64,000 bases of DNA from positions 32,001 through 96,000 of the forward strand of contig CAWJKT010000004.1 in NCBI GenBank assembly GCA_963843375.1, in the 5' to 3' direction. Position numbers: made by a program. This DNA is from an uncultured Pseudomonadota bacterium. GTDB taxonomy: Bacteria > Oederibacteriota > Muellerivitia > Muellerivitales > Muellerivitaceae. This document shows, in pieces, positions 1 to 60,000 of the stretch; positions within the stretch are counted from its first letter, which is position 1; every line of letters begins with the position of its first letter.

Positions 1-3000
1 CTCCTCCCGATAATACAGCACGCTCACGGCGCCATGGCGCTTGGAAAGCTTGGCGCCATCGGCCCGAGGATCATGGCCACGTGGGCATAGACGGGCGGCG
101 TGAAACCGATCGCGCGCAGCATGTTGATCTGGCGCGGCGTGTTGTTCAGATGATCATCACCGCGGATCACGTGGGTGATGTGCATGTCGCTGTCGTCGAC
201 CACCACGCAGAAATTGTAGGTGGGCGTGCCATCGGAGCGCGCAATGATCAGGTCATCCAGCTCCGCGTTCTGGAACACCACCGGTCCGTGGACCAGATCC
301 TCCACGATGACTTCGCCATCCAGCGGGTTCTTGAAGCGGACCACGGGCTGTATCCCGCCACGGGTGCGGTGCGCTGCCGGCAGCGTCCGTCATAGCGCGG
401 CTTCTCCTTGCGCGCCAGCTGGCGCGTTGCGCATCTCCTCGAGCTCGTCCTTGCTGCAGTAGCAGTGGTAGGCCTTGCCCTGGCCAGCAGCTGCTGAGCA
501 CCTGCGGCGTAACGGTCGAAGCGGCGGGTCTGGTAGTACGGGCCCTCATCATGAGTGAGGCCCAGCCACTGCATCCCATCCAGAATGACCTGGACGGCCT
601 CCTGCGTGGAGCGCTCGCGATCGGTGTCCTCCACTCGCAGGATGAAGCGGCCGGCGTGACGCCGGGCGTACAGCCAGCTGAACAGCGCCGTGCGGACGCC
701 ACCAATGTGCAGCAGCCCCGTGGGGCTGGGCGCGAAGCGGGTAACGATAGTCATGGAGGGCGCGATGTTAGCAGCTCTGACCGTCGGCATTGCCACGCGG
801 GCGCGGGATGCTTACACTTGCGCGCTCATTTTGGCGGGCGGTTAGCTCAGCGGTAGAGCACTGCTTTCACACGGCAGGGGTCACAGGTTCAAGCCCTGTA
901 CCGCCCACCATCCAGAAACATGGTTAAAACAAGGGCTTAGGAAGTTTCCTAAGTTCCTGTTTCTTTCTGCATGTTCGGATTTTGGTCATTTTGGGACAGT
1001 TCTGGGACAGCACCTGTGGCGCGTGCGTGTGCGACGCCAACACGGAGACTGTCCTGTGGCGACAATCGAAAAACGCGGCAAGTTCTGGCGGGCGAAAATC
1101 CGTCGCCAGGGCGCCCCTGCACAAACCCGGACTTTTGAAAACAAGACCGTGGCCCAGCAATGGGCCCGTAGCATCGAGACCGAGCTCGATAGCGGCATTG
1201 TCATCGATCGGCGCCCGGCCGAGCGCACCACCCTGGCCGAGGTCCTGGAGCGCTATCGGCGCGATGTAACGCCGACCAAGCGCGGCGCGCGGGACGAGAA
1301 CCTGCGCCTCAAGGCCATGGCGCTGCGCCCCTTCGCCCGCATCCGCATGGCCGCGCTCACGAGCTCCTACCTCGCCGCCTACCGTGATCAACGGCTCAAG
1401 GTGGTGTCCGGGGCGACCGTGAATCGCGAGTTCAACGTCCTCTCCCACGCCATCGATACGTCCCGTCGGGAATGGGATATCCATATCCCATTCAACCCCT
1501 GCACCCTGGTGCGGAGACCGCCCCAAGGACGCCCACGGAGCCGACGGCTACAGGGCGATGAGGAACAGCGGCTGCTCGCTCACTGCCGGGCTGCGCGCAA
1601 TCCCTGGCTCGTGCATTTCGTGATACTTGCGCTCGAAACGGGCATGCGGCGCGGAGAGCTGCTGTCCCTAGAATGGGTCAACGTCGACCTGAATAGGCGC
1701 ACAGCGCTGTTGCCCATCACCAAGAACGGCGACAGCCGAGGCGTACCGCTGTCCAGCCGGGCCCTGACTGTCCTGCGCTCGCTTCCGCCCTCGACCACGG
1801 GCCGCGTCTTCGGGGATCTCACCGCTGATGCTGTCAAGCTCTCGTTTCGGCGGGCGACGGTTCGGGCCAGTATCACGGGCCTGCGATTCCATGATCTGCG
1901 CCACGAGGCGACCAGTCGCCTTTTCGAGAAGGGCTTGAACGTCATGGAGGTCGCCTCCGTGACGGGGCATAAGACCCTGCAGATGCTCAAGCGCTATACC
2001 CACCTGAATGCGGTGGATCTTGCCCCCCGGCTCGGTTGAGCCGGTGACAATAACCCAAGCGTTAGGTTACACTATGCCGACGATTCTGCGATTTCGGGGT
2101 TTGCGGGTGATGATTTACACCCATGATCATTGGCCACCCCATGTGCACGTCATTGCGCCCGAAGCACAGGCCAAGATTGCACTGGGTGAAGCACGACAAC
2201 GTCCTCATGTGCTAGTCAATGATGGACTAACACCGCGACAACTGAACTGGGCCCTGACTGAGATTGATCGCAATCGCGAATTGCTGCTGACGCGCTGGAG
2301 AGAAATTTATGGCGACGCCTGAGTGGATCAAGAAGGAGCTGCGCGCAAACTTCGCCAAGGCATCCCGTGCCGGGCGACTGGCTGCGAAGACGGAACCACG
2401 TGCAGCGACCGCGGCGTATCGCGGCCGAGAGCAAGCCCTGCACGTAGAGCTCACGAACGGCGCCAAATTCATCATCCCGGTGAAGCTCATTCCGGAGCTG
2501 CAGAAAGCATCGGTCCGAGATATTTGCAAGGTGGAAGTACTTGGCCGGGGTGGTGGGCTCCATTGGGAGACACTGGATGTGGACATCAGTGTTCCGGGGC
2601 TCATAGCCTCCGTCTTCGAAGGACCGACGTGGCTTGCTGAACTCGGGCGCGTCGGCGGTCAACGGTCCTCAGCCGCAAAAGCGGCAGCGGCACGGAAGAA
2701 CGGACGCAAGGGTGGCCGCCCGCGCCTACGAGATTCTGCGGATTCCAGGGCATAGACCCGACGAACCTGTGACCACCTCCAGCTACTTGTCGCAACCCCA
2801 CGCGATGGTGTCGCGATCACGGACGGTCGCCGGCATCATTCTCTGGTGTATGTGGCAGACGATCCGAATCCCCGCCTATCTCTTTCTGTCCATCCTTGCG
2901 CCCGTGGTTCGTGTCGTGCTGAGCGCGGTTGCGCTGCTCGGCATTCTGACAACGCTACTGTGGGAGTGCGTTCATCCGCAGCACTTCCCGTTCGCCTTAA

Positions 3001-57000: not shown

Positions 57001-60000
57001 GGCCTGCATTCGGCCAAGATCATCTTGTACAGCGTGGACTTCCACGACATCGAGCGACTTCAGCATGCGGGTGATTGGGAGGCTGCGGGAGCCATATTGG
57101 CACAAGCGGCTCGTGCGCTAGAAGCTGCAGGCGCCGCTTTCTTGGTTCTGTGCACTAATACGATGCACAAAGTAGCCGCTCGTATCGAGGCTGCAGTCGC
57201 GATCCCGCTTTTGCACATAGTCGACGCAACCGCCGTTGAGATCAAGCAGTCCGGGTACTCAACCGTCGGCTTACTCGGTACGCGAATCACTATGGAGCAA
57301 GATTTCTATCGCGCCCGACTCACACAACGTCACGGCCTTCGAGTCATCGTTCCGGGGCCGGAAGACCGTGAGTCCATTCACCGCATCATCTTCGAAGAAC
57401 TGTGCCTCGGCATCGTCACGGCTGAGTCGCGCGCAGCCTATCGAAAAATCATCGGGACTGTAGCCTCACAAGGCGCGCAGGCGATCATTCTTGGGTGCAC
57501 AGAGATATCGCTTCTGGTTGATCAACAGGACTGTGAAGTTCCGCTGCTTGACACTACTTCGATACACGCTCGCGCCGCCGCCGAAGCTGCGCTCATGAAG
57601 TGACCCAAAACCCTTCGATCCAGCCTGAGATCATCGGGTCCGAAAATGAGCTCCCTGCTTGAACGCCGAACACGTGCCGCCGCCGTGCACCCCACCACCC
57701 TCGACCCAAACCGCAGCGCCCGAAGCTGCTGAGGGCAGTTGGGAATCTAGTATTAATCCTATTATTATAAATGTTGAAAAGGATAATGGATTTGGTATCA
57801 TCCCTTCCGATCCGTAGAACGGACAAATGACCCGCCACATGAGCCACTACGCCCCGGCACCGAAAAAGACCACCAGCGTATCGGTGGCTGAGCCCCTTTT
57901 GGCTGAGGCTAAGGCTCTGGGCATCAATGTTTCGCAGGCGGCCGAAGAAGGCCTCGCGAAGGCCGTCTCCACGAAGCGCGCCGAGCAGTGGATCCAGGAC
58001 AACTGGGACGCAATCCAAAGCTCGAATGAGTACGCGGAGAAGCACGGACTACCGCTCGCCAAGTACCGGATGTTCTAAATGGCGAGATTCAGTGTCTACC
58101 CTAATCCTGAGGGCGACGGCTACCTGCTTGATGTTCAGGCAGACATTGTGAGGCATCTCAACACGCGAGCAGTTGTGCCCCTGATGCCCCTGGGGAAGGC
58201 ACCGAAGCCGGCCACACGTCTCAACCCGCTGCTCGTAATCGACGACATCGAGCATACGATGCTCACGCAGTACCTGGCAGCAGTTCCAATCAGTGTTCTC
58301 AAGCGCGAGACCCTGAATGTGGCGGATCGCAGGGACGACATCGCCAACGCGATCGATTTGCTACTGCAAGGCTCCTAAGTCCATGCCGTAGAACTTCGCT
58401 CTGTGACGCGAAGTGCCATCGAATGACACTACCTGATGCCAATGGACTGTTGTGCATGGCCCTCCCCTCGCATAGCGTTGATCTGTAATGCCCTGACCAC
58501 CGTTTCACACGGCAGGGGTCACAGGTTCAAGCCCTGTACCGCTCCCCAAAGGTCCTCACTACGACGCCTTCGCGGCAGTCAGATATACGGTTCGACCCAC
58601 CGAGAGCGCCTGACCGGATTCCACCAAAGGCCGCATGACCTTTTCGAAGGTCTGGCGCTCCTCTGGGGTGAATCTTTCGGCCAGGATGGCGCTCAGCGTC
58701 GGTGCCCACGGATGCGGTGAGCTTTCGATAAATACCTGCCACGACGGAATGATGGATGGCCGCAGGTCCATGTGAAGTTCCATGTGTAGGTTTGTGAAGC
58801 CGCAGGCCCGAATCGACTCAAACAGCGTGCGCTCTGAGAAGTTGGTTATCGGACTGGCGGCAAGCTTCTCCAAGGTGTCGGGGAACTGCGCCGCCTTCCA
58901 GCGATACAGCAGCGGCAGAAAGGGATCTTGAGGCCCGGTACTGGGTTTTTCGACCATGCTTTTCAGCATACATGTCACATAGGCCTCCTCCTGAAGTATC
59001 GGCTCGGCTACCGAGATGCGGCCACCGGGTTTCAGTACGCGATGGAATTCCGCCAATGCGGCCTTCTTGTCTGCCACGTAGGTCAGAGCAGCCCGAGTCG
59101 TGATGGCATCGAGGCTGGTGTCGGCAACTCCGGAGAGTTTTCGGCAGCACTCGTGGAAGGAGCATTGCGGCAGGACCCCTCGTTCGGTCGCCTGAACTTG
59201 AGCACCCTGCAGGAGCGGTGCCGATGTCACCGAGAGTCATTCCCGGTTGCAGTTTCGCGCCCTCCAGTACCCGGTCCGCGATTGCTTCAACTTCGGCGCG
59301 CAGTGTCGCCTGAAAGATCGGGTCGCCGCCGTTGCGCAATTGAAGAAGCCATGTGGACCAGGTATCGGTGAGACGCGGATCTTGGTGGGCAGTCATGCAA
59401 ATACTCTACACTTTAGCCCGGCAATGTATCGCTACTGAGCCGATGGTTTTAAAGCCAGAGTCCGGATATTCTCGCTCAAAGCAGATCGAAGGTTTCCTGT
59501 CATGCGCTGCTGCGGTTTGCAAATTTGCCTATTGCTGTTGTGCTTCGGCGGTGCGCACGCCGGAGAAGTGCCGCTCGGACAACAGCTGCCAAGCATGACG
59601 CTGCACGGCCTGAACGGGCCGGCCCAGACCCTCGGGACCTTTCGTGGCCGGCCGTTGCTCATCAATGTCTGGGCCAGCTGGTGCGGGCCATGCCGGCAGG
59701 AAATGGCCTCCCTGGAGCGACTCGCCTGGCGCGACTCGGACCCGCACCTGGCCATCATCGGGATATCCACTGACGATGATCCGCAGGCGGCTGTGGCGCT
59801 CCTTCGCAGCACCGGCGCGACGATCAGTCAATTCATTGATGCGCGCCGGCAAATGGAAACCCTGCTGGGCGCCTCCAGCATACCCTTGACGGTGCTGGTG
59901 GATGCCCAGGGTCGGGTGCGGGCGCGCTACTACGGCTCGCGTGAATGGGACAGCCCGGCGGCGCTGCAGCTACTTCGCACTGCCTTGGGCGCGCACGAAT

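Follow-up and report, generated by a model that had tools for sequence, protein, structure and literature searches.

How does a row of gene segments, each ending in the same repeat, come to lie behind a single tRNA gene with one integrase among them? In the window (the whole stretch of 64,000 nt analysed here, from a soil bacterium), tRNA-Val(CAC) (836..910, + strand) is followed by an array of one tyrosine integrase, seven direct units of ~183 nt, and the stump of an eighth, each unit being an arm joined to the 3' part of the tRNA. The first-pass annotation had read the integrase-less segments as satellite cassettes that carry only arm and core and are inserted one after another by a resident integrase, in the manner of an integron. 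What survived of that reading is the discrete, integrase-less and apparently mobile module with att-type bounds; the resident enzyme, the restriction to arm and core, and the integron analogy did not. A worry about mis-assembly is justified for the contig (C4) as a whole and leaves the array unaffected.

ARAGORN found a single tRNA in the whole window, Val(cac) at 836-910, the integration target, and Rfam found that tRNA alone; the block of identity that it shares with all units begins at 865, in the anticodon loop. A repeat search of the window recovered seven copies of the arm-plus-core unit, whose 90-nt inner part is 82-100% alike, and eight copies of the 53-nt tRNA part, the tRNA gene itself counted. 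When unit 1 was compared by blastn with all 32 contigs of the genome, the same seven units were returned (87.0-100% over 146-189 nt), together with a 50-nt core in the tRNA and a 28-nt remnant at C4:66378 (window 34378); outside C4 there was one weak 56-nt match, on contig C15. Both methods thus placed the seven direct units and the tRNA core where the first-pass annotation had them, and the remnant it listed is present but is really the outer 46 nt—all that is left—of an eighth arm (34358-34403), upstream of which homology is split by an IS256-family insertion. From proximal to distal, the tRNA parts of the units mismatch the tRNA gene at 0, 0, 0, 0, 1, 5, and 2 positions, and of the seven arms that of unit 7 has diverged furthest, a pattern that fits insertion at the tRNA end. 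Each of segments 2-7 closes on the right with a P arm plus core and on the left abuts the core of the unit before it.

Segment 1 (911..16097, +; 15.2 kb), which ends in unit 1 (arm 15915-16050, tRNA part 16051-16097), qualifies as an integrative mobilizable element (IME): it combines a tyrosine recombinase, a displaced copy of the tRNA 3' end (865-910 and 16051-16096 are identical at 46/46 positions), and a relaxase without conjugative pore genes, no T4SS families having been found by profile search among the ORFs of 911-16097. Its P' arm (911..1055, +), directly upstream of int, holds an inverted repeat with a perfect 8-bp stem (936-953) and paired TGGGACA sites (992-998 and 1003-1009). The integrase ORF (1023..2039, +) runs from 1023, with 327-aa homologues suggesting a start at 1056, and matches Pfam Phage_integrase at 102 bits against a cut-off of 27.1. 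Its best PDB sequence match is the catalytic domain of HP1 integrase (2.3e-11), and its structural model, which matches the Tn1549 and lambda integrases and aligns with full-length lambda integrase over 347-351 columns, comprises an N-terminal three-strand-plus-helix domain (residues 13-56), a core-binding domain, and a catalytic domain—as modelled, a layout of the lambda/HP1 type whose N-terminal domain resembles an arm-binding one. The family is common in the protein collection, the best 100 clusters being 72-91% identical.

Directly after int come a DhiT-like gene (DUF4160; 2008-2322, +) and the DhiA-like gene that pairs with it (DUF2442, with a basic tail; 2309-2755, +), followed on the other strand by a mobilization/excision module (3094..5142, -). 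This comprises a MobP1/VirD2-type relaxase (3094-4212, -; Pfam Relaxase 55.5 bits, cut-off 24.6; NCBIfam MobP1 90 bits, below the subfamily cut-off of 200), a NikA-like protein (4112-4702, -; match under the Pfam cut-off), and an HTH_17 excisionase-like protein (4801-5142, -; 41.8 bits, cut-off 27; NCBIfam 'excise' domain just under threshold at 28.3 versus 28.8 bits). Pfam found no primase-, helicase-, or polymerase-type replication families in 911-16097, which has the relaxase instead; other cargo includes AbiEii (7568-8431), TetR, and a CAAX protease. Three such IMEs are known here (window, CAWJIS, and CAVYKH), and all have the identical gene order int-dhiT-dhiA, TGGGACA at both +80 and +91 past the tRNA, and two more such sites in the P arm that ends the element.

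The segments that follow, all on the + strand, have no integrase of their own, as the first-pass annotation had stated. Among the 87 greedy ORFs of the window (called by a longest-ORF heuristic), Pfam matched Phage_integrase at 1023-2039 and nowhere else; tblastn with the integrase (E up to 1) detected neither a further copy nor a fragment of it anywhere in the window, segments 2-7 included, and no relaxase was matched by Pfam in segments 2-7. Cassette 2 (16098..19136, ending in unit 2 at 18955-19136) carries BrnT (16365-16646), BrnA (16630-16896), and ORFs without an assigned family; cassette 3 (19137..20994, unit 3 at 20813-20994) carries an AAA_16 ATPase (19427-20617, -). Cassette 4 (20995..24046, unit 4 at 23865-24046) has a P' TGGGACA at 21051, a DhiA-like gene (21120-21530), a SEC-C protein, a 54-aa ORF (23680-23844), and MazF (23329-23673), adjoined by an ORF (23060-23335) that has no family match and is MazE-like by position only. 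Cassette 5 (24047..28689, unit 5 at 28506-28689) likewise has a P' TGGGACA, at 24118, and encodes an MNT-like nucleotidyltransferase (24098-24781), an LCM methyltransferase fragment, TetR, and a DUF4160/DUF2442 pair (27758-28406). Compound cassette 6 (28690..37079, unit 6 at 36898-37079) holds a Phd-like/PIN pair (28745-29426), an OMP-like protein, an arylsulfotransferase, and the IS256-family insertion (32865-34317), after which come the eighth-arm stump and a DhiA-like gene (34330-34806). Cassette 7 (37080..58549; 21.3 kb) contains an RND efflux system, cytochrome bd oxidase, TauE, and cytochrome c, with CcdA/CcdB (57827-58378) at its end; its unit 7 (58374-58549) is the most decayed and has lost the TGGGACA pair. 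The toxin-antitoxin genes previously reported for these segments were thus found (BrnT/BrnA, MazF, MNT-like, DUF4160/DUF2442, and Phd-like/PIN), plus CcdA/CcdB.

The arms share two kinds of motif, both far more frequent than chance would give. TGGGACA occurs 23 times in the window against 6.8 expected, a count attained by 0/100 shuffles, and RTGAY repeated three times with a 10-nt period is found six times against 0.00 expected; individual arms carry four to five RTGAYAT repeats with that period. A consensus built on 55 units, drawn from the window (6/55) and 10 regions of other assemblies, 11 regions in all, shows these motif blocks to be at least 90% conserved and the spacers variable. A P'-side TGGGACA is also present in 33/77 cassettes from genomes, in 25 of them at an offset of 47-49 after the tRNA end, against a chance expectation of 0.009 per 140 nt, and the finding was replicated in 39/76 distinct metagenome units. 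These cassettes therefore do not carry arm and core alone, as had been proposed: in about half of all cassettes a site at a fixed ~48 nt past the tRNA end, matching the paired sites on both arms of the IMEs, gives complete attP-like ends. The exact P' site is absent from 44/77 cassettes, among them 3/5 of the most widely shared cassette types. In 21 of the 33 cassettes with the site, the left end is without a DhiA-like gene—the 3 IMEs, in which that gene lies behind int, and 18 that lack a left-end copy altogether—and, given these 18, the site is not merely that gene's promoter. From sequence, the paired TGGGACA on both arms are likely arm-type sites, and we infer that they are what the integrase would bind; the RTGAYAT repeats would serve as sites for an accessory factor or a directionality factor.

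These units recur in 25 soil assemblies, titled mostly Steroidobacteraceae or uncultured Gammaproteobacteria, and at a minimum of 79 metagenome loci; the largest array has 13 units. The median cassette is 2.8 kb, and single-gene cassettes of 0.9-1.5 kb exist with boundaries exactly unit to unit. The integrase is far rarer: a complete gene follows the tRNA in 2/14 other arrays and is never internal, no orthologue was found in any of the five integrase-less genomes searched (MAGs, possibly incomplete; best identity 43%), and no complete integrase lies beside the 102 metagenome units. Among 300/308 representative cassette ORFs from other assemblies, integrase-family matches were confined to the IME integrases and one truncated, unrelated sequence. 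Because the integrase sits on a relaxase-bearing mobilizable element, occurs in 2/14 other arrays, and has an orthologue in 0/5 integrase-less genomes, we conclude that it is not the resident platform enzyme it had been taken for.

The cassettes, in turn, move between genomes. Eleven whole-cassette pairs between assemblies are 93.6-99.0% identical, with homology ending exactly at the units (tRNA end), and in the seven pairs where both flanks are comparable the flanks are 78.0-92.0% identical. Shared cassettes occupy differing array positions (1, 2, and 6; 3, 3, and 6; 4, 6, and 5), and one inversion of cassette order was seen. Identity of their right-hand arms is 82.8-99.2% (n = 8), where the background has a median of 79.2%, and left-hand arms are sometimes also close (93.0, 92.2, and 89.8%). 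Some right arms change similarity midway. The arms are thus mosaics, and the arrays are shaped by homologous recombination of units as well. These sequence comparisons show the cassettes behaving as mobile modules, delimited by att-type sites that belong to the family of the adjacent integrase. No recombination product was seen, and contigs of public runs gave no decisive joint: the one that 'goes back 4643', and could represent a circle or a tandem of cassette 5, comes from one 510-nt contig with 82 nt of repeated arm on its left side.

Could the array be explained without mobile cassettes, as tandem accretion of once-autonomous islands that each lost their own integrase, so that the units are inert scars? 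An IME review (PMC5704250) defines CIMEs as exactly such decay products, and 13/77 cassettes do begin like the IMEs with a DhiA-like gene, minus int and dhiT (12/13 keep the exact TGGGACA), which looks like internal deletion. In addition, a 29-aa integrase fragment (93% identical) lies upstream of a unit at metagenome locus L114, and a truncated, unrelated Phage_integrase ORF lies within a cassette at locus L002. Decay from an IME, offered in the first-pass annotation as an alternative, would fit the origin of this subset; in the rest there is no trace of it. The L114 fragment is the only one beside 102 metagenome units, segments 2-7 of the window gave no integrase remnant (tblastn, E up to 1), and single-gene cassettes (0.9-1.5 kb) keep 94-99% identity between species with 78-92% identical flanks; the fixed-offset P' site in about half of cassettes and the motif blocks conserved to 90% or more also speak against scars. 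As an account of the whole array, we find accretion unlikely.

We give still less credence to the idea that the units are mere 180-bp stretches of homology through which ordinary homologous recombination shuffles cassettes, the integrase having only founded the first repeats. The mosaic arms agree with it, as do arm identities that are higher within genomes (medians 77-88%; 82-88% in 9/10 arrays) than between them (79.2%), as gene conversion would give, and the persistence of near-identical foreign cassettes in the arrays of genomes without an integrase. Homology by itself, however, leaves unexplained both the conserved P' site, which lies outside the repeat, and the motif-wise conservation of arms across 11 regions of different assemblies, and it gives no reason for shared cassettes to cease matching precisely at the tRNA end instead of in flanking cargo.

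We consider it probable, instead, that tRNA-Val(CAC) is a hotspot whose array consists of CIME-like, non-autonomous cassettes, to which a transient element supplies the integrase. The hotspot would be used by small IMEs built of P' arm, int, dhiT-dhiA, excisionase-like HTH, MobP relaxase, cargo, and P arm, and by a far larger population of cassettes that keep the att ends of the IMEs but lack a recombinase gene. Crossover by the integrase would fall in the anticodon loop, where tRNA and units begin to match, and an incoming element would supply its own tRNA 3' part and shift older elements away from the gene, which would give the order tRNA, IME, cassette 2 ... cassette 7. Cassettes may spread either by riding with the IME, excised with it as one composite between attL and a distal attR and then mobilized through the relaxase, or by integration in trans; the IME would later depart and the cassettes remain, often retained by their toxin-antitoxin genes.

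More tentatively, and less probably than not, these soil Steroidobacteraceae-like bacteria may maintain a family-wide gene-cassette economy based on a phage-type integrase. Hundreds of cassettes would have a complete attP (P arm, core plus tRNA 3' part, P' site) and would relate to the integrase element as MITEs do to insertion sequences; the small, transient, relaxase-bearing element would pick cassettes up, carry them between species, and drop them at tRNA-Val, and the orphan DhiA-like antitoxin that many cassettes have at the left end would neutralise that element's DhiT toxin. If so, the orphan antitoxin would let the element leave without cell death, and toxin-antitoxin, defence, and metabolic genes would accumulate in arrays that stay in place.

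Chromosomal superintegrons are long, toxin-antitoxin-rich arrays of small, swappable, recombinase-less cassettes with a conserved site, the sites being more alike within an array, and the arrays described here resemble them in each of these cassette and site properties. They are nevertheless not integrons, nor the integron-like array once proposed: the integrase scores 23.1 bits against the NCBIfam integrase_gron cut-off of 265, and the sites are ~180-nt duplex attP-type arms without a single-strand attC hairpin (the arms of units 1 and 4, folded as DNA on both strands, gave z of -0.66 to +0.92 versus shuffles). ORFs of at least 150 aa point at random, 92 with the units and 94 against; the integrase is missing from 12/14 other arrays, there is no fixed integrase or promoter platform, and cassettes are often multi-gene. 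SCCmec/psi-SCC islands, with serine Ccr recombinases, and dif modules, with XerCD, both use short core-only sites without arms; they are alike in stacking, at one chromosomal site, recombinase-less cassettes whose bounds are the sites of a recombinase from elsewhere, and differ from the present case, which has a tyrosine integrase and sites with arms. P2/HP1-type attP sites have two direct arm-type repeats per arm, phased directionality-factor repeats between P-arm sites and core, and a tRNA target. The arm-type repeat pairs, phased repeats, and tRNA target predicted here are similar, whereas phage genes are lacking and the motif roles are predictions.

In the tycheposons of Prochlorococcus, as portrayed in a preprint (bioRxiv 10.1101/2020.12.28.424599), the hallmark is an integrase plus replication modules, and integrase-less material is regarded as remnants or as island genes moved by 'more stochastic processes'. 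That preprint also describes features of tRNA-seeded islands that recur here: repeated tRNA integration that displaces older elements inward, partial tRNA copies that part segments, and degenerated remnants. Compared with tycheposons as presented there, our integrase-less cassettes have conserved full att ends and the backbone is a relaxase-type IME; without the replication families searched for in 911-16097 (Pfam), it cannot be assigned to that class.

For accretions of CIMEs with IMEs or ICEs, Pavlovic 2004 and Bellanger 2011 are reportedly the primary papers. In the IME review (PMC5704250), CIMEs are integrase-less decay products of ICEs and IMEs, exemplified in such accretions by the ICESt1/ICESt3-related elements of Streptococcus thermophilus. 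Our cassettes are bounded by att sites of the IME family and have no integration or transfer genes of their own; like the CIMEs portrayed there, they retain both att ends, attL and attR, of an element with a tyrosine integrase, lie at the 3' end of a target gene, and stand in tandem with an integrase-bearing IME, composite excision and transfer being possible. They differ from that portrayal in depth and regularity, arrays reaching 13 units and cassettes having a median of 2.8 kb and in some cases one gene only, in having no remnants of transfer or integration genes, in numbering hundreds of units across a bacterial family, mostly without an adjoining integrase element, and in documented cassette-level exchange between species. 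Stacks of this kind, whose packets pass between species, recur in many related soil bacteria.

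The sole tRNA of the window, a tRNA-Val(cac) called by ARAGORN at 836-910, is followed by seven direct copies of a ~183-nt unit in which an arm (the P arm) is joined to the 3' part of the tRNA (the core); an Rfam search of the whole window at gathering thresholds returned nothing beyond this tRNA. Numbered outward from the gene, the units are 82-100% alike over their inner 90 nt, and the repeat search recovered a 53-nt block in eight copies, the tRNA's own 3' part among them. In the alignment, conservation sets in abruptly at CTGGGACAATCTGGGACAG and stops abruptly at CCACCAT, and identity with the tRNA starts in the anticodon loop. 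Comparing unit 1 with all 32 contigs of the assembly (blastn), we reproduced exactly the seven units, tRNA core, and 28-nt remnant of the first-pass annotation, with units 87.0-100% identical and one additional weak match on contig C15. Both TGGGACA (23 observed versus 6.8 expected) and triple RTGAY at 10-nt spacing (6 versus 0.00) occur in the window far above chance. The tRNA part differs from the gene by 0, 0, 0, 0, 1, 5, and 2 mismatches in units 1 to 7, and no other arm has diverged nearly as far as that of unit 7—the pattern expected of successive insertions at the tRNA end. Separately, a 44-nt repeat with the palindrome CCCTGC..GCAGGG, which could be a terminator-like or REP-like element, is present once each in cassettes 1, 2, 5, and 6 (11592-11635, 17079-17122, 25221-25264, and 29430-29473).

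Segment 1 (911-16097), the first interval behind the tRNA, constitutes an integrative mobilizable element (IME). Its P' region, just after the tRNA end, contains an inverted repeat with a perfect 8-bp stem (936-953) and TGGGACA at 992 and 1003. The integrase follows (ORF 1023-2039) and is the only one of 87 greedy ORFs to match Phage_integrase (Pfam); tblastn with its sequence found no second copy or fragment in the window, bearing out the single integrase reported at first pass. Judging from homologous sequences, the gene may start at 1056, since these proteins are 327 aa long. The predicted structure (mean pLDDT 80) comprises three strands and a helix at residues 13-56, then core-binding and catalytic domains, and aligns with full-length lambda integrase across 347-351 columns; the modeled N-domain fits an arm-binding domain. 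The family is abundant in the protein collection searched, the best 100 clusters being 72-91% identical. Next comes a DUF4160/DUF2442 pair (NCBIfam name DhiT-like; hereafter DhiT-like and DhiA-like), a pairing that appears as the toxin-antitoxin system dhiTA in a table in PMC8198452, followed by an HTH_17 excisionase-like protein, a NikA-like protein, a MobP1/VirD2-type relaxase, and cargo including AbiEii.

Beyond the IME lie six segments (cassettes 2-7) described at first pass as integrase-less, and indeed the sole recombinase recognized in them by Pfam is an IS256-family transposase. Cassette 2 encodes BrnTA, and cassette 3 has an AAA_16 ATPase. Cassette 4 carries a DhiA-like gene together with those for a SEC-C protein and MazF; cassette 5 combines an MNT-like gene and gene fragments with a DhiTA-like pair; in cassette 6, a Phd/PIN pair is joined by an OMP-like protein and an arylsulfotransferase; and cassette 7 (21 kb) encodes RND efflux, cytochrome bd oxidase, and CcdAB. 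These include the BrnTA, MNT-like, DUF2442, and arylsulfotransferase genes named earlier; of the MazEF pair, MazF stands, but the ORF preceding it matches no family and is MazE-like by position only. Two orphan DhiA-like genes (21120-21530 and 34330-34806) encode DUF2442 with a GRKGGRPR-type tail and have no DhiT partner; among cassettes elsewhere, 13 of 77 likewise begin with such an orphan right at their left end, and integrase elements carry the full DhiT/DhiA pair. Several genes in or beside the cassettes are truncated, with only C-terminal parts matching profiles: an LCM methyltransferase (25338-25856), PPK2 (44917-45375), and a class I methyltransferase (58559-59230). The OMP-like protein (ORF 29918-30631) contains Gly-Tyr-rich 12-nt tandem repeats at 30362-30457, a tract with a 6-nt length variant in one soil run.

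The 28-nt remnant is real and, more exactly, the outer end of an eighth arm (34358-34403). The DNA upstream of this stump is homologous to that upstream of unit 4, but interrupted by an insertion sequence, and the DNA after it resembles the start of cassette 4; it follows from these flanks that segment 6 consists of two cassettes whose separating unit has mostly been lost. The interrupting IS256-family element (Transposase_mut by Pfam) occupies 32865-34317. In contigs from two soil runs, 32864 is joined to 34318, the IS-free form, and 8 letters at the joint match either side; the insertion is therefore polymorphic, with an 8-bp target duplication. Immediately upstream of arm 4 is a basic 54-aa ORF (23680-23844) with no assigned family, and a second, IS-split copy (32732-32864 plus 34318-34359) is 80-86% identical at the DNA level.

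Scanning one genome per species with an exact 22-nt arm pattern, we found 62 stretches; once merged, they make up 31 regions, spread over 30 contigs from 25 assemblies, mostly labeled uncultured Gammaproteobacteria or Steroidobacteraceae; three labeled otherwise (Gemmatimonadales, Stellaceae, and Enterobacteriaceae) may be mis-binned. Thirteen regions show an ARAGORN-called tRNA-Val(cac) followed by units, and upstream of it a conserved tRNA-Glu, tRNA-Ala(ggc), and tRNA-synthetase-like gene. A fourteenth array (CAWJIS) opens with a core match and then an integrase; the largest arrays hold 13 (CAWJIS) and 9 (CAWDQL) units. Two of these 14 other arrays have a complete integrase (79% identical), both times directly after the tRNA. 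The search for an orthologue across five genomes with integrase-less arrays, all of them MAGs that may be incomplete, gave as its best match a protein 43% identical over part of its length. A separate scan of metagenomes returned at least 131 stretches, from which 79 loci with 102 units were taken; no complete integrase lies beside these units, the sole hits being a 29-aa fragment in L114 and a weak match in L100, and in IMG/VR the arm pattern had 0 matches. In CAVYKH010000001.1 (L007/L049), the complete tRNA-Val in front of the integrase element has, 180 nt upstream, a partial unit made of arm and tRNA part (oriented region 3968-4360), which puts a unit on the gene's 'wrong' side. Two assemblies, CAWILY (L001, L002, L037, L043) and CAVQKW (L011, L012, L038), have units on two contigs, one locus with tRNA-Val and one without it in the fetched flank, and a cassette of L002 encodes a truncated, unrelated integrase with a TIR protein and an IS21-type pair.

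We derived a consensus from 55 full units in 11 regions (10 in other assemblies plus the window, which contributes 6). It opens with a TGGGACA pair, continues with four to five RTGAYAT repeats every 10 nt and a conserved CTCGCATATCGTTGAT..GTAAG block, and closes with the anticodon loop and the remaining tRNA sequence. Conservation is 90% or more in the motif blocks, and the spacers vary; the spacing of the TGGGACA pair is 11 nt in the consensus and 10 nt in the window. The unit is of attP type rather than attC; folded as single strands, the arms do no better than shuffled sequence (z -0.66 to +0.92). Its layout may resemble that of the P2/HP1 attP. Crossover usually falls in the anticodon loop when an element has to restore the 3' part of a tRNA in full. 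In Islander, 2083 of 3919 islands have anticodon-centered sites.

Aligning the first 150 nt after the core, we observed a left end common to the IMEs and many cassettes: a short CTTAG-containing motif, then TGGGACA. On the unit strand, TGGGACA lies within 140 nt in 33 of 77 genome cassettes with a core on the left—at offset 47-49 in 25, and in two copies, at 80 and 91, in the three IMEs—and occurs in cassette interiors 19 times in 309,212 nt (0.009 per 140 nt). The metagenomes (at least 131 stretches, 79 loci) replicate this P' site in 39 of 76 distinct downstream ends, mostly at 47-50. A DhiA-like gene follows the site in 12 of the 33; the other 21 comprise three IMEs, where it is behind the integrase gene, and 18 ends lacking it there. 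We also considered the site as a palindromic operator for the DhiA-like protein and rejected this, the inverted half not being conserved among cassettes.

Units delimit 86 intervals; 58 of them have a core as left boundary and a full unit as right boundary and measure 909-21,294 nt (median 2.8 kb). Between assemblies, 11 whole-cassette pairs are 93.6-99.0% identical, with homology limited by the tRNA end on the left and the unit end on the right. Shared cassettes occupy different positions: an FMN-dehydrogenase cassette (1.5 kb) is at array positions 1, 2, and 6 in three assemblies, a beta-propeller cassette (3.45 kb) at 3, 3, and 6, and a PIN cassette (0.9 kb) at 4, 6, and 5, while one assembly pair shows inverted order (positions 2 and 4 versus 5 and 4). 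Chromosomal flanks of the same assembly pairs are 78.0-92.0% identical (7 of 11 pairs with both flanks comparable; 73-92% among all assemblies compared), and we therefore conclude that the cassettes moved recently between species. Against a background median of 79.2%, right-hand arms of shared cassettes are 82.8-99.2% identical (n = 8), so that the right arm tends to travel with the cassette, as predicted; left-hand arms are 67.4-93.0% identical (n = 9). Arms are clearly mosaic, with similarity switching inside the arm in places, and homologous recombination between units therefore acts too. Alleles of the tRNA part track host group, and cassettes differ by a similar amount, which makes the alleles powerless as a tracer of crossover. 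Low-depth contigs from public soil runs, compared with 14500-34400, gave loose ends at 16051, 19091, and 24004-24045; these match only the ~45-nt tRNA part and thus stem from other organisms, whether from their tRNA genes or from units, and we rejected them as IME-free or alternative junctions. Likewise rejected was a joint jumping back 13002, which ends at the edge of the examined stretch and falls in a repeated DUF2442 region.

Cargo was surveyed by Pfam in 300 of 308 representative ORFs from cassettes of other assemblies; genes were called by a longest-ORF heuristic that makes the counts approximate. At least one toxin-antitoxin family was found in 38 of 78 intervals and in 25 of 43 well-bounded cassettes of up to 5 kb, TIR or STAND-type proteins in 7 intervals, and transposases in 10; the remainder are enzymes, transporters, and regulators. 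Among ORFs of at least 150 aa, 92 share the direction of the units and 94 oppose it, both counts being approximate.

Mis-assembly had been a concern at first pass, and contig C4 does fall into three composition zones in 10-kb bins: GC 0.55-0.66 (~0.62) to 119 kb, 0.45-0.56 (~0.50) for 120-460 kb, and 0.67-0.74 (~0.69) for 460-564 kb. DNA of three organisms is probably combined in this contig as a chimera, but no join falls within the window, and the array is untouched. The left flank of the window is syntenic with 11 of the other array regions at 75-82% identity, and for this reason we regard the array-bearing part as Steroidobacteraceae-like. On the right side, 37080-64000 had no match in the fetched array regions; a 901-aa right-flank protein lies elsewhere in two of five genomes and was not found in three.

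Together, these observations fit an IME family accompanied by numerous non-autonomous derivatives in which both att arms are kept. The integrase element is tRNA-proximal in 3 of 3 cases and never internal, which fits a scheme in which it would arrive last and leave again while the cassettes stay. If cassettes are really moved by a borrowed integrase, integron-like gene collecting would have a second route, separate from integrons and built on ordinary lambda-type att sites at a tRNA gene; the soil bacteria concerned are abundant but little studied, and the way tRNA-linked islands are read would change too. The locus offers an unusually complete comparative set: units number more than 200, arm motifs have been identified, and there is a candidate enzyme. 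We found no prior description of such arrays in Steroidobacteraceae in a search that included neither the taxon name nor subscription journals; the published work that it did turn up concerns CIMEs (cis-mobilizable elements without their own integrase) and accretion, tycheposons, and Islander. Islander contains only 4 tandems of three or more, and arrays like the present one are invisible to such finders because only segments with their own integrase are counted. The cassettes are CIME-like as the IME review PMC5704250 uses the term, but differ from CIMEs as described there in being small, numerous, devoid of backbone remnants, and exchanged across species. As for the integron-like capture array proposed at first pass, the likeness to integrons holds solely at the level of outcome.
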